Assembly: GCA_046563655.1 (NCBI GenBank)
Contig: CM102287.1
Span: 4,154,001 to 4,218,000, forward strand
Source: Yuukianura sp. NJ FZ-2021
Taxonomy: Eukaryota
Length of the DNA: 64,000 bases
Direction of reading: 5' to 3'
In this document: positions 24,770-49,846 of the stretch, one piece after another
Layout: every line of letters begins with the position of its first letter
Numbering within the stretch: the stretch's first letter is position 1
Program-made: the position numbers and the translations under genes
The notes under the pieces: model-generated
The model's database searches: none
Told to the model about the DNA's origin: nothing
What the model saw: only the letters and a program-made list of their open reading frames with translations

Positions 24770-25540
24770 GCACTAGTTAAACTTTGTTTCAAAATTTTGA
24801 ACTTTTTTTCAAAATTTTCACATTTTTTTCAAAATTTTGAACTTTTTTCAAAACGTTGAACTTTTTTCAAAATTTTGAACTTTTTTCAAAATTTTGAACT
24901 TTTTTCAAAATTTTGAATTTTTTTCAAAATGTTGAACTTTTTTCAAAATGTTGAACTTTTTTCAAAATTTTGAACTTTTTTCAAAATGTTGAACTTTTTT
25001 CAAAATTTTGAACTTTTTTCAAAATGTTGAGCTTTTTTCAAATTTTGAACTTTTTTCAAAATTTTGAACTTTTTTCAAAATTTTGAACTTTTTTCAAAAT
25101 TTTCACATTTTTTTCAAAATTTTGAACTTTTTTCAAAATTTTCACATTTTTTTCAAAATTTTGAACTTTTTTCAAAATTTTCACATTTTTTTCAAAATTT
25201 TGAACTTTTTTCAAAATTTTCAAAATTTTGAATGTTGAGCTTTTTTCAAATTTTGAACTTTTTTCAAAATTTTGAACTTTTTTCAAAATTTTCACATTTT
25301 TTTCAAAATTTTGAACTTTTTTCAAAATTTTCACATTTTTTTCAAAATTTTGAACTTTTTTCAAAATTTTCACATTTTTTTCAAAATTTTGAACTTTTTT
25401 CAAAATGTTGAACTTTTTTCAAAATTTTGAACTTTTTTCAAAATTTTGAACTTTTTTCAAAATTTTGAACTTTTTTCAAAATTTTGAACTTTTTTCAAAA
25501 TATTGAACTTTTTTCAAAATTTTGAACGTTTTTCAAATCG
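24770..25540. repeat. 19-bp AT-rich minisatellite (TTTTTTCAAAATTTTGAAC)n
   Basis: Tandem units. The same array recurs at ~26460-26920, ~28390-28795 and ~30265-30665. Confidence 0.95.
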
Positions 25541-26305
25541 TTTTGGTTATTCAAATCAACTTGATTTGAGTACAAGTTGTCACATTGTCCACAAGCATAG
25601 ACAGTTCGCATTGGAGCTACAATTGATCCAGGAGTACTGCATACTGGCAGTATAGTACTTCTGCCAGTACTAGTCGACCGCTGCAACATCTGAGCCAGTT
25701 TCGATGATCCGCCTACAGGTACAAACAGTTTCTTGGACATATTCTGTGCTGATGCATGTGATGGGACAGAAGTTGTCACACTTCGAATGTCACTCACATG
25801 GAGTGTCCCAGAAACACTCTGAATTTTGGGAAACGAATCCTGGTGGGAGAGGATGCTGATGCTGCGGAATATCCGGTGGATCGTCTTCCAGAATTTCAAT
25901 CTCCGAATCACCCTGACTTGTTTCCAAAGTACAGTTCGAGTCTGGTATTTGATTCGTGCTGCTGCTGCCCCTGTGAAATCGCAGCCAGTGACGCCTGAAA
26001 GACGAATTGTCGAGAAATATTTTCTTGCAGGCTGTACATTTGAAAATCTGCGGTTTCTGGTTCAGGGACTTAAAAATTTTGCAAACTCGAACCGAGATTT
26101 TCTTGAATAAGCTCGCATCGTGCCCAATGACCATGTGATCATCTAACACCTCATAGTCCAGGAACTCGTCCATACAGAGACAGCATTGGTAGTCACCCGT
26201 TTGTGGATTCATTAGCAGTTCATGGAGACGGAACGACTCGTCATCTTCCGCTTCCGTTGTATCCGAATCCACTATGACTTCGGCAGAATTTTGATTTGGA
26301 GCAAC
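25540..26305 (-). pseudogene. ZF exon 4 copy (internal deletion, 3' truncated by minisatellite)
   Basis: VAPNQNSAEV...CCLC...CTAC, with a frameshifting deletion near 25840. Confidence 0.88.
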
Positions 26306-26919
26306 CTTTAAAAGAATGAAACAGTACTGTTCCTCTCGCCCTATAATGGGACTCTGGAATTGAGGTATATGGTGGATATCAGGTACACGAAGAAACAAAT
26401 CGACGATTTTGTAAATAAAACGTTTTTTTAACCAGCATGATTCATCCATGCACTAGTTAAACTTTGTTTCAAAATTTTGAACTTTTTTCAAAATTTTCAC
26501 ATTTTTTTCAAATTTTTGAACTTTCTTCAAAACGTTGAACTTTTTTCAAAATTTTGAACTTTTTTCAAAACGTTGAACTTTTTTCAAAATTTTGAACTTT
26601 TTTCAAAACGAACTTTTTTCATTATTTTGAACTTTTTTCAAAATTTTGAACTTTTTTCAAAATATTGAACTTTTTCAAAATTTTGAACTTTTTTCAAAAT
26701 TTTGAACTTTTTTCAAAATGTTGAACTTTTTTCAAAATGTTGAACTTTTTTCAAAATGTTGAACTTTTTTCAAAATATTGAACTTTTTCAAAATTTTGAA
26801 CTTTTTTCAAAATTTTGAACTTTTTTCAAAATGTTGAACTTTTTTCAAAATTTTGAACTTTTTTCAAAATGTTGAACTTTTTTCAAAATTTTGAACTTTT
26901 TTCAAAATTTTGAAAAAAG

Positions 26920-28235
26920 TTCTTAATTGTTCAATTAACTTTTAATTAGAATTGAAATTCTAAAATGGGCTAACTATAATTGCGCTGCGCTGTAAACGCT
27001 GATTATTAGAAGAAGTAGAAAAACAAAAGTGAAAACGAAACTGTTCTAAACAAAGAAAAAATTAAGAACGAAGGAATCATAAACAAGTCAAAGGTCAAGG
27101 TCATCATTTTACCTAACAAAATTTACTAAAGTTATGCTTAAGATTAGGTTAGGTTTCGGCTACCATTACTGGGCATGTCAGAAGCGTCCATCACAACAGT
27201 ATCGCTGTCAGTCAATTTCAGCGATTCTGGATCCTCCGATGCTGCCAGCGATGCTTGCTCAGTACTTTCTTCATCATCACTAGTCAAATCCACTACTTGT
27301 GGCGGTCGTTTCGGCACTGTGATTCATACATTTTCCATTGGAATCGTAGCTTTGTCTGAAACATGCTGCGCAAGTAGTTTTGGATCCAGAGGTGTCCAGG
27401 GTCTTAAAGTTTTGCGGCATACGACAACATGGTTATTCAAATCAACTTGATTTGAGTACAAGTTGTCACATTGTCCACAAGCATAGACAGTTCGCATTGG
27501 AGCTACAATTGATCCAGAAGTACTGGATACTGGCAGTATAGTACTTCTGCCAGTACTAGTCGACCGCTGCAACATCTGAGCCAGTTTCGATGATCCGCCA
27601 ATAGGTACAAACAGTTTCTTGGACATATTCTGTGCTGATGCTTGTGCTGGGACAGAAGTTGTCACACTTCGAATGTCACTCACATGGAGTGTCCCAGAAA
27701 CACTCTGAATTTTGGGAAACGAATCCATATCGTCAGTATTTCTTTCGATCTTGGTTTGTGTTGGCACGAGTACTGGTGGGAGAGGATGCTGATGCTGCGG
27801 AATATCCGGTGGATCGTCTTCCAGAATTTCAATGTCCGAGTCACCTTGACTTGTTTCTAAAGTACAGTCCGAGTTAGGCGTTTGATTAGTACTGCTGCTG
27901 CTGTGAAACCGCATCCAGTGACGTCTGAAAGACGAATTGTCCAGAAATATTTTCTTGCAGGCGGTACATTTGAAAATCTGCGGTTTCTGGTTCAGGGACT
28001 TAAAAATTTTGCACACTCGAGCCGAGATTTTCTTGAATAAGCTCGCATCGTGCCTAATGACCATGTGATCATCTAACACCTCATAGTCCAGGAACTCGTC
28101 CATACAGAGACAGCATTGGTAGTCACCCGTTTGTGGATTCATTAGCAGTTCATGGCGACGGAACGACTCGTCATCTTCCGCTTCCGTTGTATCCGAATCC
28201 ACTATGACTTCGGCAGAATTTTGATTTGGAGCAAC
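26920..28235 (-). pseudogene. ZF exon 4 copy plus 3'UTR with a premature stop (CGA>TGA at 27324)
   Basis: Open from the acceptor at 28235 to ...PMENV*; copy A reads PMENVRIT. Confidence 0.85.
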
Positions 28236-30158
28236 CTTTAAAAGAATGAAACAGTACTGTTCCTCTCGCCCTATAATGGGACTCTGGAATTGAGGTATAT
28301 GGTGGATATCGGGTACACGAAGAAACAAATCGACGATTTTGTAAATAAAACGTTTTTTTAACCAGCATGATTCATCCATGCACTAGTTAAACTTTGTTTC
28401 AAAATTTTGAACTTTTGTCAAAATTTTCACATTTTTTTCAAAATTTTGAACTTTTTTCAAAACGTTGAACTTTTTTCAAAATTTTGAACTTTTTTCAAAA
28501 CGAACTTTTTTCATTATTTTGAACTTTTTTCAAAATTTTGAACTTTTTTCAAAATATTGAACTTTTTCAAAATTTTGAACTTTTTTCAAAATATTGAACT
28601 TTTTCAAAATTTTGAACTTTTTTCAAAATTTTGAACTTTTTTCAAAATGTTGAACTTTTTTCAAAATTTTGAACTTTTTTCAAAATTTTGAACTTTTTTC
28701 AAAATGTTGAACTTTTTTCAAAATTTTGAACTTTTTTCAAAATGTTGAACTTTTTTCAAAATTTTGAACTTTTTTCAAAATTTTGAAAAAAGTTCTTAAT
28801 TGTTCAATTAACTTTTAATTAGAATTGAAATTCTAAAATGGGCTAACTATAATTGCGCTGCGTTGTAAACGCTGATTATTAGAAGAAGTAGAAAAACAAA
28901 AGTGAAAACGAAACTGTTCTAAACAAAGAAAAAATTAAGAACGAAGGAATCATAAACAAGTCAAAGGTCAAGGTCATCATTTTACCTAACAAAATTTACT
29001 AAAGTTATGCTTAAGATTAGGTTAGGTTTCGGCTACCATTACTGGGCATGTCAGAAGCGTCCATCACAACAGTATCGCTGTCAGTCGATTTCAGCGATTC
29101 TGGATCCTCCGATGCTGCCAGCGATGCTTGCTCAGTACTTTCTTCATCATCACTAGTCAAATCCACTACTTGTGGCGGTCGTTTCGGCACTGTGATTCAT
29201 ACATTTTCCATTGGAATCGTAGCTTTGTCTGAAACATGCTGCGCAAGTAGTTTTGGATCCAGAGGTGTCCAGGGTCTTAAAGTTTTGCGGCATACGACAA
29301 CATGGTTATTCAAATCAACTTGATTTGAGTACAAGTTGTCACATTGTCCACAAGCATAGACAGTTCGCATTGGAGCTACAATTGATCCAGAAGTACTGGA
29401 TACTGGCAGTATAGTACTTCTGCCAGTACTAGTCGACCGCTGCAACATCTGAGCCAGTTTCGATGATCCGCCTACAGGTACAAACAGTTTCTTGGACATA
29501 TTCTGTGCTGATGCATGTGATGGGACAGAAGTTGTACACTTCGAATGTCACTCACATGGAGTGTCCCAGAAACACTCTGAATTTTGGGAAACGAATCCAT
29601 ATCGTCAGTATTTCTTTCGATCTTGGTTTGTGTTGGCACGAGTACTGGTGGGAGAGGATGCTGATGCTGCGGAATATCGTGGATCGTCTTCCAGAATTTC
29701 AATCTCCGAATCACCCTGACTTGTTTCCAAAGTACAGTTCGAGTCTGGCATTTGATTCGTGCTGCTGCTGCCCCTGTGAAATCGCAGCCAGTGACGCCTG
29801 AAAGACGAATTGTCGAGAAATATTTTCTTGCAGGCTGTACATTTGAAAATCTGCGGTTTCTGGTTCAGGGACTTAAAAATTTTGTAAACTCGAACCGAGA
29901 TTTTCTTGAATAAGCTCGCATCGTGCCTAATGACCATGTGATCATCTAACACCTCATAGTCCAGGAACTCGTCCATACAGAGACAGCATTGGTAGTCACC
30001 CGTTTGTGGATTCATTAGCAGTTCATGGAGACGGAACGACTCGTCATCTTCCGCTTCCGTTGTATCCGAATCCACTATGACTTCGGCAGAATTTTGATTT
30101 GGAGCAACCTTTAAAAGAATGAAACAGTACTGTTCCTCTCGCCCTGTAATGGGACTCT

Positions 30159-30771
30159 GGAATTGAGGTATATGGTGGATATCAGATACACGAATAACCA
30201 AATCGACGATTTTGTAAATAAAACGTTTTTTTAACCAGCATGATTCATCCATGCACTAGTTAAACTTTGTTTCAAAATTTTCACTTTTTTTTCAAAATTT
30301 TGAACTTTTCACAAAACGTTGAACTTTTTTCAGTGTTGAGCTTTTTTCAAAATGTTGAACTTCAAAATGTTGAAGTTCAAAATTTTGAAAAAAGTTCAAA
30401 ATTTTGAAAAAAGTTCAAAATTTTGAAAAAAGTTCAAAATTTTGAAAAAAAGTTCAAAATTTTGAAAAAGTTCAACATTTTGAAAAAAGTTCAAAATTTT
30501 GAAAAAAGTTCAAAATTTTGAAAAAAAGTTCAACATTTTGAAAAAAAGTTCAAAATTTTGAAAAAAGTTCAACATTTTGAAAAAAGTTGAACATTTTGAA
30601 AAAAGTTCAAAATTTTGAAAAAAAATGTGAAAATTTTGAAAAAAGTTCAAAATTTTGAAACAAAGTTTAACTAGTGCATGGATGAATCATGCTGGTTAAA
30701 AAAACGTTTTATTTACAAAATCGTCGATTTGGTTTTTCGTGTACCTGATATCCACCATATTCCTCAATTCC
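30159..30771. mobile_element. Foldback-type element: unique ~110-bp TIR ends (GGAATTGAGG...) plus inverted 19-bp minisatellite
   Basis: GGAATTGAGG at 30159 is mirrored by CCTCAATTCC ending at 30771, and the array polarity switches near 30365. No clear TSD. Confidence 0.7.
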
Positions 30772-30879
30772 TCTCACGTTGAAGTAAATCCGTCGCTTCT
30801 ACATCTACCCTCAAATCAAAACGCTTTTTCGGTCAACTCAAAAAGGAATTCCAAATTTCAAGACTAAAAATTTAGAAGG

Positions 30880-31657
30880 AAAATTTGTCTGTTTAAGAAG
30901 CAGAATTCCAAAGTTCAAAAAGCTAAAAATTTAATAAGAAAATTTGTCTGTTTAACAAGCAGAATTCCAAAGTTCAAAAAGCTAAAAATTTAATAAGAAA
31001 ATTTGCCTGTTTAACAAGCAGAATTATTCCAAAGTTCAAAAAGCTAAAAATTTAATAAGAAAATTTGTGTTTAACAAGCAGAATTCCAAAGTTCAAAAGC
31101 TAAAAATTTAATAAGAAAATTTGTCTGTTTAACAAGCAGAATTCCAAAGTTCAAAAAGCTAAAAATTTAATAAGAAAATTTGTCTGTTTAACAAGCAGAA
31201 TTCCAAAGTTCAAAAAGCTAAAAATTTAATAAGAAAATTTGCCTGTTTAACAAGCAGAATTATTCCAAAGTTCAAAAAGCTAAAAATTTAATAAGAAAAT
31301 TTGTGTTTAACAAGCAGAATTCCAAAGTTCAAAAGCTAAAAATTTAATAAGAAAATTTGTCTGTTTAACAAGCAGAATTCCAAAGTTCAAAAAGCTAAAA
31401 ATTTAATAAGAAAATTTACCTGTTTAACAAGCAGAATTATTCCAAAGTTCAAAAAGCTAAAAATTTAATAAGAAAATTTGTCTGTTTAACAAGCAGAATT
31501 CCAAAGTTCAAAAGCTAAAAATTTAATAAGAAAATTTGTCTGTTTAACAAGCAGAATTCCAAAGTTCAAAAAGCTAAAAATTTAATAAGAAAATTTACCT
31601 GTTTAACAAGCAGAATTATTCCAAAGTTCAAAAAGCTAAAAATTTAATAGGAAATTT
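30880..31657. repeat. ~59-bp minisatellite, ~13 units, in ZF copy B intron 3
   Basis: Unit AAGCAGAATTCCAAAGTTCAAAAAGCTAAAAATTTAATAAGAAAATTTGTCTGTTTAAC. Confidence 0.95.
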
Positions 31658-34600
31658 CGTTTGTAAGTGAAAGTGTTAAGTGTGAGTTTGGTTTACTTCA
31701 ACCAAATACGTTTCTACGCGTCAAAAACAAGTCAGCAACTGCACAGGGAAAAAATGCAGTATAATCAAGTTAGTGATGGCGTACCTGAACAAACACCAAG
31801 CGTTCTCCAGTTTCTGGAAGCGGAGTAGACAAGACGATTGATGGAACAGGACGAGCTTTTGCTGACTGATTAATTTCTCTGACACGAGTCATGTGACCTC
31901 TTGACTTCTGATGTGACGATAACGAAGCTTTTTTCTTAAAAGGCATCATACACATGAGACAATCAAATTTGGATTCACCAACGTGACCCCGTCGATGTAG
32001 CTCCAGCCCACTCCTACTTCCGTACAGTTTGTGACAGATTGTACATAAAAACTGTTGATGAATTTGGAGAACATGGAGTTCCAGTTTGGGCAAACTGTGT
32101 TGTCCACTGGAACAAATGTCACAGATGAAATTCCGATGTTGGCATTCCACTTCACAGTCTAAGTTGACTTCAGTTTCTGCCGCCCGCATTTCATGATCGC
32201 ATTGTTGTACTTTGAGTACTTTGAGTGGTTCACTGTCTCCATGTCGAGCAAAGTGAGAAGCGTTGTGAAGTAATTTGATACAAGGTCGACAGAAATGCTC
32301 ATGGTCGGGATGATCACTGAGCAAATGGATTTCATGAGCTGCTTGAGACGTCGAGCACAAGTTGCAGGCTATACATAGAATCATGTTGTGTACAGTGAGC
32401 ATGTGATTTTCTAGACCAAAAGTGCCGCAACAGACATGTGCACATATATCGCATATTTTGGATTCTATGTTGTATCGTGGCGGATCTCGACAAATCCGGA
32501 ACGAAACTCCAGTTTGTGCTGGAACTGGAAGTTGGACTGGCCTTGGAGGAATAGTTGAAATGGGCAGAAGCGTAGATGCTGAATCATCGCTGGAACTGTT
32601 GGAAGTTGATTGTGGCGATCCGACACTGATTGACGTCGATTCGACATTACGCAATTTTTGAACAGGAGCAACCGACTGAATCGGTTTAGGTTTCGACACT
32701 ACTTGACTAATAATCGGAACTTCAGAAACGTCAGACTCTGGTTCTCCTTGGAGTTGTCCTTCGGCAGCGGGCGCTGAGGCTGATTGGAAGAAAAAAAATT
32801 GAACATTAAAAACTGACTTTTTCCAAAAAATTTGATTAAAAATACAATGTTACTTACCAGCTGATTCTTCTTCTTCGTTAGAAGCATCTCTACCCAAAAA
32901 TTGCTTTGGCCCAAGTGCTCTGTCCACCATCATCCGTCGTTTGCTCGGCTTGGGTTTGTCCTTGACGTTCCACTTCAATTCCAGTTTTCGTCTTCGTTGG
33001 ATCTGTTTCCTCGTCACTTCATCAGAATGTAACCACTCATGTTGCAAATAGGTTGACATTTTCTTAAACTTGGCACCACACATGGGACAGGCATACTTGA
33101 ATCCAAGCAGTAAATCTTCACTTCCGTCGGTCAGTCTTAGAGGCATAGTCGGATCTCGTGCTGCTGGTACCGATTCTGGCAACTCTTCTAAAGTCGGTTC
33201 TCCTAGAGGTGGAGCAATCTGTCCAGCAAGTGACGAACCGGTACCGATATTGGTATCTCGGTCTGGCTCTACTTCTTCTCGTACCGTCGGAACAGTTGGG
33301 ACGATTTCTTCTACTCGTTGGTTCGGTCTAACTGGATCTGACTGCGGTAGAACCGGTTCTGGAACCTGTATCGTTACTGGAATCGGTATCGGTACCCTGA
33401 CAACTGGAGCTTCAGCGACCACGTCTTCCTTTCTAGCATGTTCCTTGTTCCGATGAAACTGAAGACTTTGTGAAGACTCAAATCGCTGAGAACAATTTGG
33501 ATGCATACAGATATACAGTTTTCGAATTCTGGCTGAATGTGACTCTCTTCGATGAGCGAGAAGGTGCATCTTGGATCCAAGTACACGCGGGCAGAATTCG
33601 CATTTGAAACGTCCTGGACGATCACTGAGCGGCTCCGAATCTTTGGGCTTGTCACCAACTCCATCTTCATAGTTGAGAGTAAGCATGGCTTTGGGGACTC
33701 CAGGAACACCAGCATTTGGGTCTGGTCCATCCAGTAAGTCCAAAAGGGAACCCATATCTAAAATGCTACATTTGACACCGTTTGTCATGTCAAATGGAAT
33801 TACACTTTCAGAGGGGTCAATTATAGGTGGTGACACTTCATCTACTTCGAACATGTCGGCCAATGGATACGCTTCGTCTTCATCTTTTGGTCCTCGCTCA
33901 CCAACTTTCAGGAGCATTGGAGTGATTACTTCGTCTTCTTCTGGTGGTTCAAACGTTTCGTCAACGATTTCTTGCTTGACAGGTCCTAGTTCAATGATTC
34001 CATTTCGGACATAAAGTGGTCCAGCAGCTTGATAAGTTTGAACCGGTTCGGGATTTTGAAGTACCGGTTCGACAGTGACGTGCAATGGCTCGGTTGTTTC
34101 TGATACAAACGGAGAAGGTGGTTCGCGAATTTGATCTTTCCGGACTGGTCGAATATGTTTCCTGGCAACTGCAATTTGTCTTCTTAGAAGATCTCTAGTA
34201 TTTTTGTCCAGAAGATCCGCCGAGAGAGATCCTCTTGCAAGAGAGTGTTTCTGAGACATGTGTCTTGATTGGCCATTGGGTTTTTTGAACCTCGCTTGAC
34301 AAAATTGACAAACGTAGTCCATACGTTCAGGGATAAACGGTGACAGTTTGGTTTTGTTACTGTGAAAGGCTTCGTGAGCTTCAAGTTGCATAGGATTTGC
34401 AAAAAATCTGGAACAGTAGTTGCATTTGGTGCGTTGTGGTTCTTGAGGATGGACTTTTTCCATATGACTTTTGAGGGCATCTTCATCTTCAAAGGACGAT
34501 TTGCATGGACGACAACGAAATGTTAGTTTTGGTGTAGAAGTTCCTGGCTTTACATCGTGTTCTTCAGAAGACTCCGATTTTTGATCTTCTGACTCCGATT

Positions 34601-35764
34601 CGGAATCAGAACCAACTAATTTTGTCTCCTTCTCCGTTTCTGTTTTTCCTGATAAGCTCTTGGCAAGATTTACTTCAAACTGGCGCAACGATTCACGAAA
34701 CTCTTCCAAATCGTTTACTCGAGTCAAGCAAATTCTTGGTTCCTTGATTTCAACTTCTTTGGCAAAATCAGAAAGGTCTCTGATTGTAAAACAAAAAATT
34801 AAAAAAAAAACACAAAAATATTCACAATGTTCTGAAGTGACGTTTGACCTTACCCTGTAGGTAAATTATCGAGAGATTCTGGTGGTGCTGCAGAAGAAAT
34901 ATTGGCAGTCTGTGATGGTGAACTTGTTCTGGGAGACTTTCTCGTTGTAAAAAGCTTCTTCTTTCGTCTTCGTTTCCGATTACTGCTTTGTTTATTTGAA
35001 CTAGTAGGAGATTGGTTCTTCCCGTCCTCTGAGTCTGATTCCGAACCAAACTGGTCCTGGCCAGCATCCGCCAATGAAGATACTTCTGGAACCAGAACAG
35101 GCATCTCCGGCGTACTGTTTTGTTTGACACGACTTTTGTCAGTAGCCTTGTCTTCGTCATCTTCTGATGAAGAAATCATATCTTCGACGTAACTCATTCG
35201 CCCCCTCTTGCGACGGCCCCGAGCACAGTCTACAGGAATCTCGTTTGCATTTGAGGTGCTGTTGTTCACTACTTTCCTAGGAATCTCCGGAGACTTTGTG
35301 GAATTGTCTGAATCGCTGCTAGAATTTGCCCCTTGGACTGAAGTAACTTTTGATCCTGTTGGTTTCACGTTATCGGTGTTTGCTTTCGTATTTGTAGTCG
35401 GGGTTGGGCTGGAATTGGTCTTTGACTTTGGCTTTCTCCGCCTTCTTGTTCCAGTCCAACTTGTACTCCATCTTGTTTTGCCCATCGTGGTTATTATTCG
35501 AAAAAGAGGTGAGTGAAAGTCGACCTGTACTCGGAATTGTACTCGACGAGGCCTTCAATTTATTCTCATTAAAATATGGATCGGAATATGAAGTAGAACT
35601 GAGAGACCGAGATATGGCACCTCGAGTTCGAGTACCCCCACTCCGGGCCCGGACGACCGTGACCGTGCTGAAAACGACAAATTAAAAATTACCATTTGAC
35701 CACGATTATCAACCGGTACAGCTGATTTACAGATTTTTTAGATTATCGACCGGGTTAACCACCG

Positions 35765-36583: not shown

Positions 36584-36852
36584 TATGTTATTCCCATATG
36601 TTATTGGGGAAATGAAAGGTTCCAAATTGCCATTTTTAAAAAAAGATGTCGCAACAAATCGTAGTTACGCAATTAAACAAAAAAAAGTTTATTTTTTTTA
36701 TTTATCGAAACACTTTACTAAATTAAAAAAATAATCCTTAGAAAAATTTCATTAAAACTTAGAATTTGTTGTTGTGTGGAGTCGCAGCCTAATAAGAAAA
36801 ATTTTGTTTTGTGCATTACAATAACTTTTAACTATCAGAATGGTTGAGGAAT

Positions 36853-37715
36853 AAACCGGTTGTAAACCGCCCATAATGATAATAGCTCAGAAATTAGGGG
36901 TTGCCGCCCAGGGGTGGGGGTATCCCCCCACTTTTCCGCTCCCCAGGGGGAGTGGGGGTGTGTTCCCCCCTCTTTCCCGCCCCCCCCCCGGTGGAGTGGG
37001 GTGGCTTCCCCCCACTTTTTTGCTCCGCACCCCAGGTGGCGTGGGAATGGGTTCCCCCTACTTTTTAGCTCCACACCCCAGGAGGCGTTGGGGTGTGTTC
37101 CCCGGGGGAGAGGGAGTGTGTTCCCCGGGGGAGGGGCGTGGGCTCCCCCGGTGGTGTGAGTGTGGGTCACCCGGGGTGTGTGACGGTGGGTCACCCGGGG
37201 TGTGTGACGGTGGGTCACCCGGGGGTGACGGTGGGTCACCAGGGGTGTGTGACGGTGGGTCACCCGGGGGTGACGGTGGGACACCAGGGGTGACGGTGGA
37301 TCACCCGGAGCTGTGGGGTGGGTTCCTTCCGCTTCCCAGCTAGCTGGACGTTAATATGAAAAAAAAGTTGACCTTTGACCCGGAAGCAGGTCACTTGGGG
37401 TCATGTGATCTACACAAAAGTTGTTGGTCTCGACGAGATGAACAACTTTTGTAGAGGTCATTTTACGGGTTACCGGGGATAAAACCGGTTGACCTTGACC
37501 TTTGACCCGGAAGGAGTTGACACACGGGGGTCATATTCAATAGTGAATAGGTCCGGGTCATGGCATGGTCACTGGTGAAAACCCGGTTGAAATTGGTCCA
37601 CCAGTTCCGGAGATAATCGTTCTAATGTTTTCCGGGACAGACGGACAGACGGACGGACAGACGGACAGACGGACAGACAAACTACTTTTATAATAATAGC
37701 TTCGCTATTATAATA
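36853..37715 (-). mobile_element. Helentron-associated (HINE/DINE-1-like) non-autonomous element
   Basis: 5' hairpin ATAATAGC-TTC-GCTATTAT, (GTCY)n microsatellite, GC-rich central tandem repeats, subterminal IR and 3' stem-loop CGGTT-TAC-AACCG followed by TTT. No TSD; empty site at ~9395. Confidence 0.75.
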
Positions 37716-39176: not shown

Positions 39177-39675
39177 CCTACTGCTGGACAAGCATGCTTG
39201 TCCAGCATCCGGTCTCTGCTGAGGCTGCTGCTGCTGCTGATGATGATGATGATATGGTTGTTGCAGTGTGTTCTGGGCGTGGGCAGGTACCGGCTGGTAC
39301 TGCTGAGAGTACATGAGGTCCGCACCCGCAGACATCATTTTGCTATGACTTTCAATTACGGACGGATCAATCAATTAATGCAGTCAATCGTACAACAAGC
39401 AAATCACTGTTTAAAAGTAAATGAATGATGCAGAAACGGAAGCGCACGTTTAATAACGTTTGGTAAATAATTTCGTCTTCTCTTCCGTTCTTCGTCTTCT
39501 ACTCATCCATGGCTCAACCGTCGGCAATTTCAGCTGCACCCCGCTTCTGATGATATCATCTGTCAAAATAGAGTGAGGACCATTAAAAAGTAGACACCAA
39601 CAAAGATAATAATATTTATTTTTCAGTTTCGGGGGGGGGGAGGGATGAATAACTTGACGACGTATGCTGCATGTA

Positions 39676-40040
39676 CTACGGTGGGGAATGTAGGGGAAAC
39701 GGCGGGAAATATGAGGAAAACTGTGGGGAACGTGGGGAAAACGGTGGGAAATGTGGGGGAACGGTGGGGAATGCGGGGAAACCTGTGGGAATTGTGGGGA
39801 AAACGGTGGGGAATGTGGGGGGCGGTGTGGAATGTGGGGTGGGGCGGTGTGGAATGTGGGGGGGGGCGGTGTGGAATGTGGGGAAAACTGTGGGGAATGT
39901 GGGGAAAACTGTGGGGAATGTGAGGAAAACGGTGGGAAATGTGGGGAAAACGGTGGGAAATGTGGGGGAAACTGTGGGGAATGTGGGGGAAACGGTGGGA
40001 AATATGAGGGAAACTGTGGGGAAAACGGTGGGAAATGTGG
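39676..40040. repeat. G-rich ~21-bp minisatellite (GGGGAAAACTGTGGGGAATGT)n
   Basis: Tandem units with many G-runs. Confidence 0.92.
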
Positions 40041-40067
40041 TTAGACTGTCTGTTAGACTGTCTGTCA

Positions 40068-43000
40068 GGTCGAGCACAAGTTGCAGGCTATACAGAGAAT
40101 CATGTTGTGTACAGTGAGCATGTGATTTTCTAGACCAAAAGTACCGTAACAGACATGTGCACAAATATCGCATATTTTGGATTCAATGTTGTATCGTGGC
40201 GGATCTCGACAAATCCGGAACGAAACTCCAGTTTGTGCTGGAACTGGAAGTTGTACTGGCCTTGGAGGAATAGTTGAAATGGGCAGACGTGTAGATGCTG
40301 AATCATCGCTGGAACTGTTGGAAGTTGATTGTGGTGATCCGACACTGATTGACGTCGGCTCGAGATTACGCAATTTTTGAACAGGAGCAACCGACTGAAC
40401 CGGTTTAGGTTTCGACACTACTTGACTAATAATCGGAACTTCAGAAACGTCAGATTGTGGTTCTCCTGGGAGTTGTCCTTCGGCAGCGGGCGCTGAGGCT
40501 GATTGGAAGCAAAAAAAAATTGAAAATTAAAAACTGACATTTTCGAAAAATTGTTAATTGAAATTACAATGTTACATACGAGGTGATTCTTCTTCTTCGT
40601 TAGCAGTATCTTGGGCTTGACCTCTACCCACAAATTTTTTTGCCCCAAGTGCTCTGTCCGTCATCATCCGTCGTTGGGTCGGCTTAGGTTTGTCCTTGAC
40701 GTTCCACTTCAGTTCCAGTTTTCGTCTTCGTTGTATCTGTTTCCTCGTCACTTCGTCAGAATGTAACCACTCATGTTGCAAATAGGTTGACATTTTCTTA
40801 AACTTGGCGCCACACATGGGACAGGCATACTTGAATCCTAGCAGTAAATCTTCACTTCCGTCGGGCAGTCTTAGAGGCATAGTAGGATCTCGTGATACTG
40901 GTGCTGCTAAGTCTTCTAAAGTTAGGTTTCTTTTCGGTTCTCCTGGAGGTGGAGCAATCTGTCCAGCAACTGATGACGAACCAGCACCTACATCTATATC
41001 TCGTTCTGGCTCTACTTGTTCTCGCACCGTCGGAACAGTTGGGACGATTTCTTCTACTGCAGGTTGATTCGGTAAAACTGAAACTGGTTGCGGTAGCACC
41101 GGTTCTGGAATCTGTATCGATACTGGAATCGGTATCGGTACTCTGACAATTGGAGCTTCAGCAACTACGTCTTCTTTTCTGGCATATTCCTTGTTTCGAT
41201 GAAACTGAAGACTCTGTGAAGACTCAAATCGCTGAGAACAATTTGGGTGCATACAGATATACGGTTTTCGAATTCGGGCTGAATGTGACTCTCTTCGATG
41301 AGCAAGAAGATGCATTTTGGATCCAAGCACACGTGGACAGAATTCACATTTAAAACGTCCTGGACGATCACTGGGCAGCTCCGAATCGTTGGCCTTGTCA
41401 CCAACTCCATCTTCATAGTTGAGTGTAAGCGTTGCTTTGGGGACTCCAGGAACACCAGCATTTGGGTCTGGTCCATCCAGTAAGTCCAAAAGTGAACCCA
41501 TATCTGAAATACTACATTTGACACCGTTTGTCATGTCAAATGGAATCACACTTTCAGAGGGGTCAATTATAGGTGGTGATACCTCATCTACTTCGAACAT
41601 GTCGGCCAATGGATACGCTTCGTCTTCATCTTCTTCTTTTGGTCTCGCTCACCAACTTTCAGAAGCACTGGTGTGATTACTTCGTCCTCTTCTGGTGCTT
41701 CACACGTTTCGTCAACGATTTCTTCCTTGACAGGTCCAAGTTCAATGATTCCATTTCGGACATAAATTGGTCCAGAAGCTTGATAAGTTTGAACCGGTTC
41801 GGCATTTTGAAGCACCGGTTCGACAGTGGCGTGTGTGACACTCAGGGGTCACATGGGCTTGAGAGACAAAGGATGATAGTGCAGAAAAAATATTGACTCG
41901 GTTGTTTCTGACACAAACGGAGAAGGTGGTTCGCGAAGTGAATCTTTCCGGATTGGTCGAATGTGTTTCCTGGCAACTGCAATTTGTCCTCTTAGATCTC
42001 TAGTATTTTTGTCCAGAAGATCCACCGAGAGAGATCCTGTTGCAAGAGAATGTTTCTGAGAAATGTGTCTTGACAGGCCATTGGGTTTTTTGAACCTCGC
42101 TTGACAAAATTGACAAACGTAGTCCATACGTTCAGGGACAAACGGTGAAAGCTTGGTTTTGTTACTGTGAAAGGCTTCGTGAGCTTCAAGTTGCATAGGA
42201 TTTGGAAAAAATCTGGAACAGTAGTTGCATTTGGTGCGTTGTGGTTCTTGAGGATGAACTTTTTCCATATGACTTTTGAGGGCATCTTCATCTTCAAAGG
42301 ACGATTTGCATGGACGACAACGAAATGCTGGTTTTGGTGTAGAAGTTCCTGGCTTTTCATCGTCTTCTTCAGAAGACTCCGATTTTTGATCTTCTGACTC
42401 CGATTCGGAATCGGAACCAAACAGTTTTGTCTCCTTTTCCGTTTCAGTTTTTGCTGATACGCTCTTGGCAAGATTTTCTTCAAACTGGCGCAACGATTCA
42501 CGAAACTCATCCAAATCGTTGACTCGAGTCGAGCAAATTCTTGGTTCCTTGATTTCAACTTCTTCGGCAAAATCAGAAAGGTCTCTGAGATTTGAATAAA
42601 AAAAAAATTAGAAAATTCAACTCCAAAATTCAAAATGTGTTGAAATGGCCTTACCCTGTAGGCAAATTGTCGAGAGATGCTGCTGCTACTGAAGATGAAA
42701 TATTGACAGTTTTTGATGGCGAGCTTGTTCTGGGCATAGAGTAACCATGACGATTCGATTTTTTTTTCTTTTAGCTAGAGTGGACATAAGGCATTTTTTC
42801 AACAAAATTTTTGAAACATTTCCAAAGCGAAAAAAAACCGTTTTCATCCCAAGTTTAAGCCAGGTTCACACAAACGATGAATTGCAGGTACCATTTTACC
42901 ATTACCATTAACTACTTAAAACTATTTGGAATTAAGTGAGATTTTATTTCACAACAGAGTTTAAATTCGCGAATCGGAAATACTCTGGATCTAACATTAC

Positions 43001-43912
43001 TGACCTCTGAAAATTACAGTTTTGTTAGAAGTGTTACGAATAGTAGTTGGGTTTAGCTTAATGGTTTCCTGTTTGGCTATGTAATGAAACCTAATCTTAC
43101 AGTATTGTCTAATGACCAAGCGAAGCAAAGTAAGCACGTGTGAAGACTCAAAAGTGTGTTCATCCATGCTGATCATCCTCAATTCTCCGAAGATGTCCCC
43201 TTGCTGAAGAGTTTGGAGGGTGACAACGTTAAGTATTAGTAATTAGAATTAGGAAATAGTAACTTTAATTTAACTTTTTCGAAAGCAATTTTAGCAGGAG
43301 GACGAATTGTTGGGTTGCTGTCACCTCTTCTAGGCATACTACTAGTCACCAGTTGTATCGTGACAGATATGGGCGGATATTTTGTCTCAAAACCCCTGCT
43401 TTTCGCAATTCTATTCATAATTTTAGAAATTTTGAAGACTGAAAATCTAAATTTCATTTTTGGTGTGAACCTTGCTTAAACTTGGGATGAAAGCGGTTTT
43501 TTACCTCTTTTAACCTCTTTTAATTTGTTTCAAAAATTTTGTTGAAAAAATGCCTTATGTCCACTCTAGTTAAAAGAAAAAAAATCGAATCGTCATGGTT
43601 ACTCTATGGTTCTGGGAGACTTTCTCGTTGTAAACAGTTTCTTCTTGCGTCTTCGTTTCCGATTACCGCTTTGTGTATTTGAACTGGAAGGAGATGGGCT
43701 CTTCCCGTCCTCTGAGTCTGATTCCGAATCAGAGTCATCCTGGCCAGTATCCGCTGCTGAAGATACTTCTGGAACCAGAATAGGCATCTCCGACGTCCTG
43801 TTTTGTTTGGCACGAGCAATGTCAGTACCGTTGTCTTCCGGTGTTTCCTTGTCTTGATCCTCTTCTTAAGAAGATAACTCATTCGCCCCCTATTGCGACG
43901 ACCCCGAGCACT
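40068..43912 (-). pseudogene. ZF gene copy C (inverted): partial exon 1, exon 2 and partial exon 3, disrupted
   Basis: ~60-bp insertion near 41830-41895, frameshift near 41640, TE in exon 1, truncated at both ends. Confidence 0.88.
42735..43608. mobile_element. Non-autonomous DNA transposon, CATAG...CTATG termini, long TIRs, 8-bp TSD GTTCTGGG (P-element-superfamily-like)
   Basis: TIR CATAGAGTAACCATGACGATTCG... TSD at 42727-42734 and 43609-43616 inside ZF exon 1; empty in copies A and B. Confidence 0.85.
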
Positions 43913-43920
43913 CTGGCACC

Positions 43921-44265
43921 CTTTTGACCCCTTAAGGGGTCAAAGGGTCAAGGACTTGGAATTTCCGGATTCTGACTCCACAGCTGTAGTGGGGGGACCT
44001 AATGGACTTGTTTTTTGGATAGTGATCTTTTGACCCCCTTGAGGGGTCAAAGGGTCAAGGACTTGGAATTTCGGGATTCTGACTCCACAGCTGTAGTGGG
44101 GGGACCTAATGGACTTGTTTTTTGGACAGTGACCTTTTGACCTCTTAAGGGGTCAAAGGGTCAAGGACTTGGAATTTCGGGATTCTGACTCCACAGCTGT
44201 AGTGGGGGGACCTAATGGACTTGTTTTTTGGATAGTAACCTAAAATTTGGAATTTCGGGATTCTA
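43921..44265. repeat. ~107-bp tandem repeat x3 with internal palindrome TTTGACCCCTTAAGGGGTCAAA
   Basis: AGGACTTGGAATTTC recurs at 43951, 44058 and 44164. Confidence 0.9.
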
Positions 44266-44289
44266 GTGTCGTTGGTCAAGGTCAAGTAT

Positions 44290-44800
44290 TTAAATTGTGT
44301 TTACCATTAGGTGCTGAAAATTGTTTTTGGAAATGCCAAGCAGTAACTCGTAGTCATCATTAGTGAGGTCGGACTTTTCCCCAAAGTCTGTACGAATCTT
44401 GGCAGTAAGGTCAGTCGTCAGGAAATGGATCCAGCCAGAAATTCCATTAGGTGGCGCTGCCAGTGTTGAATGTCGTGCTGTGATTTTCATCAGAGCGTCC
44501 AAGATGAAGCTTTGACCCTCCAGGTGACTTGAGCAGACGCGGTTGTTTGCACCAACCAGAATTCTTGTCTTCTTCCAGGCGTCATGGATGGCCCAACGTG
44601 GGATTCTTTGCCTTCCTTTTGGATCTGCGCACAAGAAGCAGCACCTTTGTGTAGTTTTCGTACGCAGAATTCCAGGAATTTTGACAAGATTGGCGTCGAT
44701 GTAATTTTCTGTGATGGTCTTGGGCTTAGAGTCATGTGCAGGACCGGTGTATGCCTTCCTTTTCAACCGATTTTCAGACAATTTTTGAATGCCAAATGTC
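44290..44800 (-). mobile_element. Transposase N-terminal fragment (THAP-like C2CH plus helical segment; PIF/Harbinger/ISL2EU-like)
   Basis: CFLC-x31-CSSH with IP and W, followed by LTNDDYELLLGISKNNFQHL, a pattern seen before DDE_Tnp_4-type domains. The catalytic domain is absent. Confidence 0.55.
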
Positions 44801-45008
44801 AACTGTTGGAGATCACAAGACTGGGATGCGATCACGACTCGCTGACTCAGGTCCAAGTTCCGTTGTTGTAGGGTAGAGCAGTACATTCGGAATATTTGAA
44901 GTCTCGTCTCCAATTTTCCGGACACTGTTGTAATGGTTACCTAAACCAAGAAAGTCTCATTAATGTATCATTTTTGGTTACCAACTATAAAACGTTATAT
45001 TATATATA

Positions 45009-45704
45009 CCCTAATTCCTCGCCTACAAGCCGCGGATTATCTGAGAAATTCCGAAAAATTTTGAAAACAAAATAATTTTTTTTCGCTGAAAACTGAAGAA
45101 TTTTGTTAAAAATCTGTCGGAATTGCCGGTAAATGTTCTACATCCTATTTAAAACGGCTTTCATCTAATGTTAATTCATCAAATCCAGCATTTTTGTCAC
45201 GGTTCTGGTGTCTGGCGAATCAAATTTGTACAAATTCGTGCATAATTAAAAGATGTTTGGAGGAAACTGGGAATACTTTTACTTTCACCGGGTAACCGGA
45301 TTTTTTATAATTTCTTTCTGAAAAAAATTAACCTAACCTAGCCTACCAATATTGTTTAAGCCCTTTAAAACGTAACCGAGTTAACTTGTAAAACGTTGAT
45401 AAAAAATTAACATGAGCCCTTATGGGGACATTTCAATTTTCAAACTTTTTTAAAAATTTCAGTTTTTGAGATTGTAGTAAAAAAAAATATTTTTTCATTG
45501 TCAGGGGTGCATAAGGTATTTCAGGAAAAAAAATAAAAAAAATGGAGTTTCACGATGAAAGTACAATAATTAACCTGAAACTGTAGTAATCTGTACAGTT
45601 TCCTTTTTAACTTTAAAGTTTGCGTTTTTGCGCTGTCAAGGTATTTTTGAAAATTTCTTGGTGCGGCTTATACGCGAGTGCGGCTTGTAGGCGAGGAATT
45701 AGGG
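45009..45704. mobile_element. Tc1/mariner-pogo-like MITE in OTU intron 3
   Basis: TIR CCCTAATTCCTCGCCTACAAGCCGC at both ends, flanked by TA. Confidence 0.8.
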
Positions 45705-46289
45705 TACAACAGTGTTTTTGCTTTTTTACCATTTTCATAAAAGATGTGCATTTCCAATTGAGGTCCACCAGACAATGTTCGAAATTGTAATGGACTTTGA
45801 TTCAGTTGGTGGATTATAAGAGCAACATTATGCAACCGAGAAAAGGCAGCAATTGATTCATTTCCGGCGTATGTTCCTGGTTGCGAGAGTTGTGACACTA
45901 AAAAGACAGACACTGGAGGGTCGAATTGTTTTTAAACGTGAAACTAGTTTAATCTTAAGGGAATTACAGTATTCGTCAAATGTACTATCGTTCTCGTCCA
46001 AAAAAGGTTCAAAATCATTTCTGTTATTTCGCATGTAGGCCACAACATTTCTCCTATGTGTCAAGTGGTTGATCTTCCGTCAATTTGATCCGCCAGACTA
46101 CGAAAAAGGCAGTTGCTATAAATAAAAATGAAAAAATAAAGTGCAATAAGTAATTGTATAATTGCATAATAAGTTTACAAAAATAACTTACCCATCCCCC
46201 CTCATTCTGCGTATATCAAGACCTCGGGAAGCCAACTGCTGAGTAACTAGCTTAGCGGAGTGGCCAAAGTTCCGATCAGTTCCGCACAT

Positions 46290-46600
46290 TGTTTTAGTTC
46301 CAGAGGTCAATCCAGGTCGAGTTGCAAAATCTGTTCCAGAATTCATTCTCGTTTGAGAGGTCAGTTCAGTTGCAGAGGTCATTTCAGGTCGAGTTGCAAA
46401 ATCAGTTCCAGAGGTCATTTCAGTTCCAGAGGTCAATTCAGTTCCAGAGGTCATTTCAGTTCCAGAGGTCATGTCAGTACCAGAGGTCATTTCAGTTCCA
46501 GAGGTCAATTCAGTTCCAGAGGTCATGTCAGTTCCAGAGGTCATTTCAGTACCAGAGGTCATTTCAGTTCCAGAGGTCATTTCAGTTCCAGAGGTCATTT
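46290..46600 (-). repeat. 18-bp coding minisatellite encoding (TSGTEM)n
   Basis: CCAGAGGTCATTTCAGTT units, in frame in ORF 46188-46760. Confidence 0.9.
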
Positions 46601-47234
46601 GTTGAATTTTCCGGTTTTTCATAAGTCCAGACGCATTCCTCATTCCCGCAAAACATTTTCCGCATATACTGCGAGATTTCCCATCAACATAGTACGCACG
46701 AGTATTGGAAGCATTCCAGCGAGAACAACAGCATTTGCAGTCACACTGCCACTTTCCCATGCTTCAACTTTAACGTTAAAAAGCTGAGCTAATTAGATTA
46801 CTGAGCAAAATTAATCTAGAACTGAAACGTAATTAGGTAGTAATGTGGAAAATTCTTAAACCAAAAATGAACAAATCAAAAATATAATTGAAAATCCCCA
46901 GCAATCAAAATTAAAGAGACATCATCTCCCAGAAGTGTTTCTACTATAATCTCAGAATTTTCAATAACTTTTTCAAGCCACATTTTGTGGGTGTAAGTGT
47001 TGTTAAATAAACAGTTTTCACTCTCTTCAAAAAAAAAATTAAAGAAAATACGGAATCTTTTATTTCAATACAGTAATTCATAATTGTTCATATTAATTTC
47101 AACATATACACACAAAGCGGCAACTGTTGCCAAGGCATCATTTTCAGGATTCTTAGAGAAAGTCGACGTTTTTTTTTTTAGAAAAAACGGCCAAAAGTGA
47201 ATGTCCCTTTCGAGCAATTTCAAATGCAAGGACT

Positions 47235-47586
47235 ACTTACGACACCCTGCCGTGACACCTTCGCTGCGTCCTACCTAGCAACATCATCTTCCGTTCTTGG
47301 TCATCCTGCTGCCATTGCCGAAATCCATAAGCATGACCTCTACCGTGACCTTGACCATCGATTTATTGTTTCCATCATTGCAGTCGAGACAACTGGAGTC
47401 TACGGGGAAGAAGGCCGACGTCTACTCAATTCCATTGGACATCGCCTCTCAGAAGCCACCGGTGACAATCGAGCAACATCCTTCCTTTTTCAACGAATTA
47501 GCCTTGCCATCCAAAGAGGAAATGCCACTTCTATATTGGGAACCCTACCGTCAGGAAAAAAACTCTACGAAATCTATATGATTTAA
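47235..47586 (+). mobile_element. Non-LTR retrotransposon 3' end, restriction-like endonuclease region (CRE-like)
   Basis: CRDTFAASYL...AE..K...Y..L...AVETTG.YG.EG......IG.RL...TGD.R..SFLFQRISLAIQRGNA.SILGT. Confidence 0.75.
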
Positions 47587-47633
47587 ACATTTTTTAAATA
47601 CCTCTTTGAATACCTCAACCTGCCTCTGGCAGG

Positions 47634-48434
47634 AGTAGGTACAATGTGTAGGAATAGCCCAAAATGTCAATCAAAATAATGATTGACAGGTAGGGTTTTA
47701 GCATTGGCCTATTGTTAGGTTTGGGTAATTAAAAAAACTAATTAATAAATAAATACTAAATAAAAATAATTAGGACTAATTAACTAACCCCCCCCCCTCC
47801 CCGACTAATTAACTAATCCCCCCCCCCTCGGCAAATGGGGGTTTTGTATTTGTTTGGGTTAGGTAAGTGTAATTAAAAAGGGCTAATTAATAAATAAATA
47901 TATTAATCAACTAATTAACCCCCCCCCCCCGAATTAACCCCTATTAACTTCATCGGTTAACCCCCCCCCCCGACTAATTAACTAACCCCCCCGGACTAAT
48001 TAACTAACCCCCACCCCTCGACTAATTAACTAACCCCCACAATATCCCCCCCTGACTAAACTAACCCCCCCCCCCGAGTAATTAACTACCCCCTTAACCC
48101 TTACAAAGACAATTGCATTACCCCCTTCCCCTCACCACTAATAAATTATCCCTCCTCCAACTTCGTGGAGTGGGGGGTGTCAGTGAAGGGCGGGGTAGAA
48201 AAGTTAACTGTGGGGCTTGAATACAAAACCCCCATTTGCCGAGGGGGGGGATTAGTTAATTAGTCGGGGAGGGGGGGGGGTTAGTTAATTAGTCCTAATT
48301 ATTTTTATTTAGTATTTATTTATTAATTAGTTTTTTTAATTACCCAAACCTAACAATAGGCCAATGCTAAAACCCTACCTGTCAATCATTATTTTGATTG
48401 ACATTTTGGGCTATTCCTACACATTGTACCTACT
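47634..48434. mobile_element. Foldback MITE, ~215-bp TIRs, AGT...ACT termini, 6-bp TSD GGCAGG
   Basis: 47634-47850 is the inverse of 48220-48434. Internal CTAATTAACTAACCCC repeats. Confidence 0.85.
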
Positions 48435-48914
48435 GGCAGGTGTAAGTTTTTTCAGTTCTGTGGTGTTAAATAAAAGAAAAGAAACTTACAACATCACGAA
48501 ATTTTGGCGCTTACCTGAAAAGCCTATGATTTATCAACCGTAAAAATCTGGTTATGTTGTAAGTAGTCCTTCTACAGATTTTTGTGGGCTCAATTTAAAC
48601 CAATAATCGAAAACGTCCTTTTCTTATTAAATTTTTAGCTTTTTGAACTATGGAATTTTGCTTGTTAAACAGACAAAAATGTTCCTTCTAAATTTTGAGT
48701 CTTGAAATTTGGAATTCCTTTTTGAGTTGACCGAAAAAGCGTTTTGATTTGAGGGTACATGTAGAGGCGACGGATTTACTTCAACCTGAGACGTTTATAG
48801 GTGCGACGCGTTAAACATCAACTGAAGAACTGCATGAACTGAAAAAACTGAACTATAATAGAAATTTAGTCAATTAATTGGAATTTTTAACTTCCTTGCT
48901 TAATATTTTTAAAG

Positions 48915-49846
48915 GTTGCTCCAAATCAAAATTCTGCCGAAGTCATAGTGGATTCGGATCCAACGGAAGCGGAAGATGACGAGTCGTTCCGTCTCCATGA
49001 ACTGCTAAGGAATCCACAAACTGGTGACTACCAATGCTGTCTCTGTATGGACGAGTTCCTGGACTATGAGGTGTTAGATGATCACATGGTCATTGGGCAC
49101 GACGTGAGCTTATTCAAGAAAATCTCCGTTCGAGTTTTTCTTTTATTTAAAATTTTTAAGTCCCTGAACCAGAAACCGCAGATTTTCAAATGTACAGCCT
49201 GCAAGAAAATATTTCTGGACAATTCGTCTTTCAGACGTCACTGGTCAGATTCCACAGCAGTACGAATCAAACGCCTGACTCGAACTGTACTTTGGAAACA
49301 AGTCAGGGTGACTCGGACATTGAAATTCTGGAAGACGATCCACCGGATATCCCGCAGCATCAGCATCCTCTCCCGCCAGTACTTGTACCAACACTGACCA
49401 AGATCGAAAGAAATACTGACGATATGGATTCGTTTTCCAAAATTCAGAGTGTTTCTGGGACACTCCACGTGAGTGACATTCGAAGTGTGACAACTTCTCT
49501 CCCATCACATGCATCAGCACAGAATATGTCCAAGAAACACTTTGTACCTGTAGGCGGATCAGCCAAACTGGCTCGGATGTTGCAGCAGTCGACTAGTACT
49601 GGCAGAAGTACTATACTGCCAGTATCCAGTACTCCTGGATCAATTGTAGCTCCAATGCGAACTGTCTATGCTTGTGGACAGTGTGACAACTTGTACTCAA
49701 ATCAAGTTGATTTGAACAACCATGTTGTACGATACCGCAAAACTTTAAGACTTAAGGATCCAGAACCGCTGAAATTGACTGACAGCGATACTGTTGTGAT
49801 GGACGCTTCAGACATGCCCAGTAATGGTAGCCGAAACCTAACCTAA
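48915..49846 (+). pseudogene. ZF exon 4 copy D (frameshift near 49250, internal deletion)
   Basis: ORFs 48948-49397 and 49190-49846 match exon 4 of copy A in two frames; only an intron-3 remnant lies upstream. Confidence 0.85.

Follow-up and report, generated by a model that had tools for sequence, protein, structure and literature searches.

On the minus strand of a 64,000-nucleotide stretch of Yuukianura sp. NJ FZ-2021 DNA (assembly GCA_046563655.1, contig CM102287.1, positions 4,154,001 to 4,218,000; hereafter the window, meaning the whole stretch that was analysed), an intron-bearing gene for an OTUD3-type OTU deubiquitinase runs without a spacer into an open reading frame (ORF) that resembles the DNA-binding head of a PIF/Harbinger-ISL2EU-type transposase. 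The reading that we tentatively favour, with doubt still somewhat outweighing belief, is that the locus is the dead remnant of one transcription unit, in which an OTUD3-derived module stood upstream of an ISL2EU-like DNA-binding head, most likely as one OTU-transposase polypeptide. It may descend from an ancestral fusion protein of a mobile element, which a single dead copy cannot prove.

The OTU Gene

Four exons with GT..AG borders make up the gene (46760-46192, 46115-45968, 45897-45730, and 44940-44813, minus strand). Its donors are GTAAGT, GTAATT, and GTAAAA, and every acceptor is a T-rich tract ending in AG. Introns 1 and 2 measure 76 and 70 nt; intron 3 (44941-45729) is 789 nt long as it stands and 91 nt without the miniature inverted-repeat transposable element (MITE) that has been inserted in it. 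Exon 1 (46192-46760) opens with an ATG at 46760, immediately 3′ of an in-frame stop, and encodes in order a cysteine cluster (MGKWQCDCKCCC...ICGKC), a run of MTSGTE-type repeats (18-nt unit, 14.9 copies, 84% matches, 46333-46600), a pre-catalytic segment, and the end ..RMRGDG, the donor being TGG/GTAAGT. Exon 2 (45968-46115) contains the catalytic Cys loop NCLFRSLADQIDG, followed by a one-base frame shift and then (R)KINHLTHRRNVVAYMRNNRNDFEPFLDENDSTFDEY. The core of the OTU domain is encoded by exon 3 (45730-45897; SQLSQPGTYAGNESIAAF...IIHQLN...EMHIFYEN), and the catalytic His motif, (G)NHYNSVRKIGDETSNIP..., by exon 4 (44813-44940), which begins behind the acceptor TTTAG/G and encodes NHYNSVRKIGD before the OTU frame closes at the TGA at 44815-44813. 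Both catalytic loops are present: the Cys loop (D-G-N-C-L-F) reads ..RGDG/NCLFRSL across intron 1, as judged by eye, the piece being too short for a database match, and the His loop (H-Y-x-S-V) reads ENG/NHYNSV across intron 3, colinear with the core.

The type of the domain is given by its middle part. The fragment of exon 2 termed exon 2b matches residues 42-72 of human OTUD3 (PDB 4bou) at E=4.1e-5, and exon 3 matches residues 77-128 at E=3.5e-9; 4bou is the sole PDB match of both pieces, the two matches are colinear, and 39 of 84 columns are identical (counted from the alignments). Because of these colinear matches and the presence of the catalytic motifs, the OTU domain of the gene is, by its sequence, of the OTUD3 type. 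The nearest ESM Atlas clusters of exon 3 are exclusively of OTU/otubain type. On a 73-aa piece, Pfam OTU scores 16.9 bits (E=0.0097), under the cut-off of 23.3 because the piece is a fragment. Searches with other parts of the gene returned little: the 46-aa end of exon 1 had chance matches only in the PDB (E>1), the 41-aa exon 4 alone had no PDB match, and the N-terminus of exon 1 had no usable match in the ESM Atlas. A word-index protein search with exon 3 found no match among 8 candidates (E<=0.001), and the same kind of search with exon 1 found, among 8000 candidates, one unrelated match to a 1094-aa protein (E=4.6e-3, 26% of the query) that probably comes from the repeat region.

As assembled, the gene is broken, because its frame shifts by one base inside exon 2, at about 46072-46079 between ADQIDG and INHLTHRR, which leaves the reading frame not intact, and because the frame of exon 1 runs into a TGA at 46063-46061. 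A preliminary description of the locus, made from the letters of the sequence, had proposed four exons with a complete OTU catalytic set, preceded by an N-terminal Cys cluster and a TSGTEM-type linker. The exons, the GDG/NCLF and HYNSV motifs, the cluster, and the linker with its 14.9 repeat copies are all confirmed, but the frame is not continuous, the shift in exon 2 having been overlooked.

The Transposase-Like Frame

An open frame of 216 codons from stop to stop (44293-44940, minus strand) overlaps exon 4 of the OTU gene, one base out of phase with the OTU frame; counted from the first ATG, at 44886, it has 198 codons. The preliminary description had noted this overlapping frame in its shifted phase, with its C2CH motif, but had given it 211 codons. 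An exhaustive HMMER search of 1.84 billion representatives (E<=1e-3) yielded 101 relatives, the best at E=3.3e-18, with best identities of 37-44% and with all matches falling on query residues ~51-213. Pfam (E<=0.001) recognises DDE_Tnp_4 in 30 of the relatives, HTH_Tnp_4 in 38, and either of the two in 45; the other 56, mostly short fragments, are without any Pfam family. The earlier view of the frame as transposase-related is borne out by these relatives. As far as homology can tell, the 216-codon frame is the N-terminal DNA-binding head of a PIF/Harbinger-ISL2EU-type transposase, and it fits ISL2EU by the architecture of its relatives. In a tblastn comparison of the relatives with the window, all 98 high-scoring segment pairs (HSPs) share a single frame; apart from one that begins at 44865, they begin at 44778 or below, and all but one end at 44305-44293. 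The homology accordingly spans 44778 (44865 in the one HSP) to 44305. A word-index protein search with residues 50-216 gave no match at E<=0.001 among 188 candidates.

Two segments of the head can be described further. The first is a C2CH finger at about 44524-44640, formed by C101, C104, C136, and H139 (C-x2-C-x31-C-x2-H), whose Cys and His columns are invariant or nearly so in two alignments (A1 and A2, the latter comprising 71 sequences, the window ORF and 70 relatives). An AlphaFold model on 70 relatives has a mean pLDDT of 80.6 and values >90 for residues 70-198. The finger had been called THAP-like; the C2CH pattern is there, but the label rests on that pattern only and is unconfirmed, as Pfam THAP is not among the matches listed (25 of 52 families, E<=1) for the 71 sequences that make up A2, and Foldseek against the PDB gave 0 matches at E<=0.001, with the P-element THAP domain (3kde) ranked third at E=1.6. 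The second is the LTNDDYELLLGISKNNFQHL segment (DD..LL.GISK..F..L) at the end of the frame, at about 44305-44364 (minus strand). In the relatives it is located upstream of the Pfam HTH_Tnp_4 domain, a position that rules it out as that helix-turn-helix. The relatives' profile shows a weak villin-headpiece likeness here in the PDB (1yu7, E=0.16), and Pfam VHP matches 3 of the 71 aligned sequences (best E=0.048). A SWIM-like motif lies toward the C-terminus of the relatives, with Pfam SWIM matching 4 of the 71 (best E=0.0043).

One Gene or Two

Several features of the junction argue that the two modules once belonged together. They are on the same strand, there is no spacer between them, and their coding regions overlap. 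No more than about 110 nt lie between the last OTUD3-like residues (..RKIGDETSNIP, ~44900) and the first transposase-like residues (44778), and both domains are whole at the junction. The transposase frame stays open across the whole of exon 4, up to the intron acceptor, and the OTU gene has only some 30 residues past its catalytic domain, with no room for a 3′ untranslated region (UTR) before the transposase homology begins. The location of the unit, a unique and repeat-rich stretch of 4.7 kb flanked on either side by a partial copy of a duplicated host gene, is counted on the same side, as is the precedent of OTU domains in Ginger1 transposases and Helitron proteins (PMC2836005; PMC9741609).

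Other observations weigh against an original fusion. The frames are offset by one base, and the OTU frame ends with the TGA at 44815-44813, short of the finger, 12 codons ahead of the general start of transposase homology and in the other frame, leaving no single open frame. Sixteen GT..AG pairs in all could join the frames, and these have poor splice sites and GC-rich bodies unlike the AT-rich real introns. Pfam (E<=0.001) finds OTU in 0 of the 101 relatives, and phmmer of the window's five OTU pieces against the same relatives reaches a best E of 0.38. The identity to human OTUD3 (39/84) is as close as that of a host orthologue would be, and a single copy of the unit was examined. The rest of a transposon is also missing. 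There is no DDE domain anywhere in the window (tblastn, 101 relatives), and no YqaJ second ORF among the 38 of 141 window ORFs of >=90 aa that were scanned with Pfam. The end at 43912-43990 has no inverted mate in 44242-48700 (<=2 mismatches in 14 nt) beyond chance matches, no suitable pair of terminal inverted repeats (TIRs) is found among the best 25 of 105 inverted pairs by length, and no target site duplication (TSD) of a host element was seen. An intron linking the OTU frame to the transposase frame (e.g., of 64 nt at 44884-44821) was considered and rejected, since it has neither a GTAA-type donor nor an AT-rich body.

Much of this would be expected if a host OTUD3-like pseudogene and an unrelated transposase fragment, cut at both ends, had been joined by deletion or rearrangement without ever having been one gene. 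In DNA so rearranged and rich in repeats, a chance junction of this kind is only slightly less likely than an original fusion. It would account for the differing frames, the OTU frame's own stop, the relatives' lack of OTU, the host-level similarity to OTUD3, the three short canonical introns typical of a host gene, the absence of TIRs or a TSD around the unit, and a location between two broken copies of a duplicated gene, among a MITE, a 106-bp satellite, a foldback element, and a retroelement-like ORF. However, it requires one junction that spared both domains, left them within about 110 nt of each other, and kept them in the same orientation; it would leave the OTU gene without a C-terminal region and 3′ UTR; and it leaves the Cys-cluster N-terminus unexplained, which is not known to be an OTUD3 feature.

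The end of the transposase homology bears on another alternative. At 44304, the homology is followed by ATG/GTAAAC, a possible splice donor, and the 63 nt beyond it (44242-44304, minus strand) resemble part of a tandem-repeat unit, with a fourth copy of the direct-repeat family D3 at 44247-44264. The repeat itself, of 106 bp, occupies 43920-44241 in 3.0 copies (94% matches), a degenerate fourth partial unit reaching 44264, and each unit opens with a 16-bp perfect palindrome centred on TTAA (GACCCCTTAAGGGGTC); it may belong to the element as subterminal repeats or be a satellite unconnected with it. A transposase that ends exactly at a possible exon end and is followed by repeats has the look of a deletion derivative, and the locus might be an internally deleted, non-autonomous ISL2EU-like element that had captured an intron-bearing piece of OTUD3, or one in which OTU was a separate accessory ORF. 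The retained introns and the host-level OTUD3 similarity would suit such a capture without fusion, as would the second ORF that ISL2EU and Harbinger elements usually have in the relevant passages of their descriptions (PMC4482050; PMC4122938; PMC9179366). We nevertheless consider it improbable: the second ORFs named in those passages encode a YqaJ exonuclease (ISL2EU) or a Myb-like protein (Harbinger) and not OTU, the overlapping coding regions leave no intergenic room for a second promoter, and the termini of the element were not found.

The openness of the two segments could point instead to a living gene. Neither contains internal stops (~145 codons in the OTU frame, 216 in the transposase frame), and in the spliced model exon 1 shares the phase of the transposase frame, an agreement with a chance of one in three, so that two opposite 1-nt errors would restore one ORF. 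The locus would then be a domesticated chimeric host gene, an OTU protease with a recruited transposase DNA-binding head and a lost DDE domain, both frame breaks being assembly errors. Two independent assembly errors would be needed within 1.3 kb, neither at a long homopolymer; the ORF stops abruptly before the satellite; the locus lies in rearranged, repeat-rich DNA; and the word-index searches with exon 1, exon 3, and the transposase frame gave no relevant protein, which is weak evidence. We regard this explanation as very improbable.

To return to the favoured reading of a fused OTU-transposase unit, the copy in the window is non-functional, with the frameshift in exon 2, the frame offset, the deletion of HTH_Tnp_4 and DDE after the possible exon end at 44305, and the MITE in intron 3. 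When the 101 relatives were compared with the window by tblastn, the best E outside 44272-44865 was 0.039, with no HTH_Tnp_4, DDE, or SWIM-like part, and no further transposase pieces, TIR mates, or extra copies were found in the window. The TIRs, TSDs, and DDE domain of a host element, which the preliminary description gave reason to look for, are thus not to be had here by tblastn or by inverted-pair searches. Because HTH_Tnp_4, DDE, TIRs, and the second ORF are all absent, the remnant cannot transpose. The protease-transposase fusion remnant that had been proposed keeps its two parts, an OTUD3-type gene and a DDE_Tnp_4-type head on the same strand, but lacks a continuous OTU-C2CH frame and any counterpart among the relatives that carries OTU.

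In the ancestor, the OTU and transposase modules would once have been in one frame, which calls for one further 1-nt indel or a poor intron within 44900-44815, and the unit would have been a mobile, cut-and-paste element. The C2CH and helical modules of such an intact protein would bind the ends of the element, and its DDE domain would cut and paste. By analogy with other transposon-borne OTU domains, the tethered OTUD3-type protease might deubiquitinate the transposase or else the repair factors present at the break. For the function that had been suggested earlier, the countering of ubiquitin-based silencing, there is no evidence here.

The N-Terminal Cysteine Cluster

The layout of exon 1 is a further, weak point in favour of a fusion and hints at where an OTU module might have entered a transposase. 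A CxxC-RRIxSN...(I/L)CxxC motif occurs in about 20 of the 101 relatives, mostly at or near the start of the protein (P0022, P0026, P0043, P0046, P0068, P0071, P0084, and P0089 are among them), and is followed by a low-complexity linker of 80-180 residues and then by the C2CH finger. The N-terminus of the OTU gene is laid out likewise, with a Cys cluster and a repeat linker, and can be aligned colinearly to this motif. A compacted hidden Markov model (HMM), devised post hoc, gave the first 60 residues 14.2 bits, the best of 1000 shuffles reaching 9.4, and placed the full ORF second among 1979 window ORFs. hhalign gave it the top raw score among 87 CxxC-bearing ORFs. Other measures speak against the likeness: with the unmodified HMM the exon 1 ORF ranked 31st of 1979, at 9.9 bits against a shuffle maximum of 9.2, and the hhalign probability was 25%, with a tiny margin over zinc-finger decoys. 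The resemblance of the two N-termini is suggestive with the compacted HMM only; it is weak and not significant at the level of sequence. A more specific form of the fusion, also on the doubtful side, is that the locus represents an undescribed ISL2EU-like lineage in which an OTUD3-derived domain sat in the variable linker between the N-terminal CxxC...CxxC zinc motif and the C2CH finger.

Setting of the Locus

The window is animal DNA and contains a canopy/MSAP-like exon, a C2H2 zinc-finger gene repeated several times in both orientations, PIP5K exons, and Ig/FN3 receptor exons. The OTU gene and the transposase-like frame lie in a unique stretch of 4.7 kb (43912-48618) that has no second copy within the window. 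To the left it is bounded by a truncated first exon of the duplicated zinc-finger host gene (43609-43911, minus strand), which has 90.6% identity to 11584-11266 and whose homology breaks at 43911; on its right, likeness to an intron of the same gene family restarts at 48619 in the opposite orientation. The stretch also holds the 106-bp tandem repeat, the MITE, a retroelement-like ORF, and a foldback element. Given the partial host-gene copies at both sides and these repeats, the stretch is a rearranged, repeat-rich junction. At least four whole or partial copies of the multi-exon zinc-finger gene occur, with both orientations represented (10950-19306, 25495-35554, 40065-43865, and 48891-49846), a pattern that points to recent segmental duplication and its breakpoints; the 40065-43865 copy is cut off in exon 1, exactly at the start of the OTU/transposase stretch.

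The MITE in intron 3 (45007-45706) has inverted ends of 27 nt that are 100% complementary (45007-45033 and 45680-45706). It is flanked by TA on each side, its terminal inverted repeats being perfect over 25-27 nt, and because of the two TAs the element proper is taken to be 45009-45704. This is the extent that had been proposed for it earlier, and the perfect ends and the flanks support it. In size (~696 bp), TIRs, TA flanks, AT-richness (GC 0.33), and want of a long ORF (the longest overlapping one has 62 aa), it resembles TA-flanked MITEs of the Stowaway/Tc1-mariner-like kind, from which it differs as the sole copy in the window.

Two further elements of the unique stretch lie upstream of the OTU gene. 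A 134-codon open frame at 47182-47586 (plus strand) ends in ..SFLFQRISLAIQRGNATSILGTLP and has no Pfam family at E<=0.01; we take it to resemble the C-terminal tails of retroelement proteins. A foldback-type element at 47634-48434 has inverted arms of 192 nt at 100% identity (217 nt at 99%, blastn), which surround C/G runs mixed with GACTAATTAACTAA-like units. Elsewhere in the window, 275-5763 (plus strand) contains three tandem pairs of frames of 170-189 codons with a common ..LLY.LYAL.YPNYL.. ending and no credible Pfam match, which look like a tandemly duplicated gene family. The low-complexity regions 36835-37350 and 39450-40182, open in several frames on both strands (PHxP/TVGNVGK-type repeats), are probably satellite-like DNA rather than genes.

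Comparison With Known Systems

ISL2EU transposases are described, in passages of three papers, as THAP, HTH, and DDE parts accompanied by a second ORF encoding YqaJ (PMC4482050; PMC4122938; PMC9179366). The relatives of the window frame likewise join an N-terminal C2CH finger, HTH_Tnp_4, and DDE_Tnp_4, as in the ISL2EU group of PHIS (PIF/Harbinger-ISL2EU-Spy). The window copy differs from that group in being without HTH_Tnp_4, DDE, TIRs, a 2-bp AT duplication, and the YqaJ second ORF, and its finger is not recognised by Pfam THAP among the matches listed (25 of 52 families); the relatives in turn have SWIM-like and N-terminal CxxC...CxxC motifs that are not mentioned in those passages of the published ISL2EU descriptions. 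An OTU domain was not reported for the ISL2EU group in a full-text literature search for OTU and ISL2EU, which covered papers apart from their supplements and Repbase entries, and OTU and DDE_Tnp_4 co-occurred in the search only as separate mentions in one paper's methods.

With human OTUD3 (4bou), the window gene shares a colinear core and the Cys-loop and His-loop motifs. It differs by its N-terminal Cys cluster and MTSGTE repeat, by the broken frame of exon 2, and by having nothing after the domain. OTUD3 itself has a C-terminal UBA-like region. One paper describes a preference of OTUD3 for K6 chains, with cleavage of K11 linkages as well (PMC9741609).

The closest precedents for an OTU domain in a DNA transposon are Ginger1 transposases and Helitron proteins, where its presence is established in passages of two papers that propose roles in repair signalling or in protection from degradation (PMC2836005; PMC9741609). 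As those passages have it, Ginger1 and Helitron/Helentron proteins resemble the putative window fusion in carrying an OTU cysteine protease inside a DNA-transposon protein, with a proposed handling of ubiquitin during transposition, and differ in their enzymatic partner, which is a Gypsy-type integrase or RepHel, the OTU of Ginger1 being at the C-terminus. In the window, a DDE_Tnp_4-type head is found with OTU upstream of it, and Pfam shows no integrase or RepHel in the 38 ORFs scanned out of 141 of >=90 aa. An accidental junction would make the locus an unremarkable heap of pseudogene and repeat debris at a duplication breakpoint. A true fusion would give a DDE_Tnp_4-type transposase, for the first time, a ubiquitin protease of its own, and would mean that DNA transposons had recruited OTU independently three times, Ginger1 and Helitrons being the earlier cases. 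Should intact copies exist, the uptake of a deubiquitinase by integrase-type Ginger1, by rolling-circle Helitrons, and by a DDE_Tnp_4 element would look convergent; such convergence would suggest that transposition generally requires ubiquitin to be removed, and an OTUD3-type domain, with its reported K6/K11 preference, would point to a specific and testable signal.

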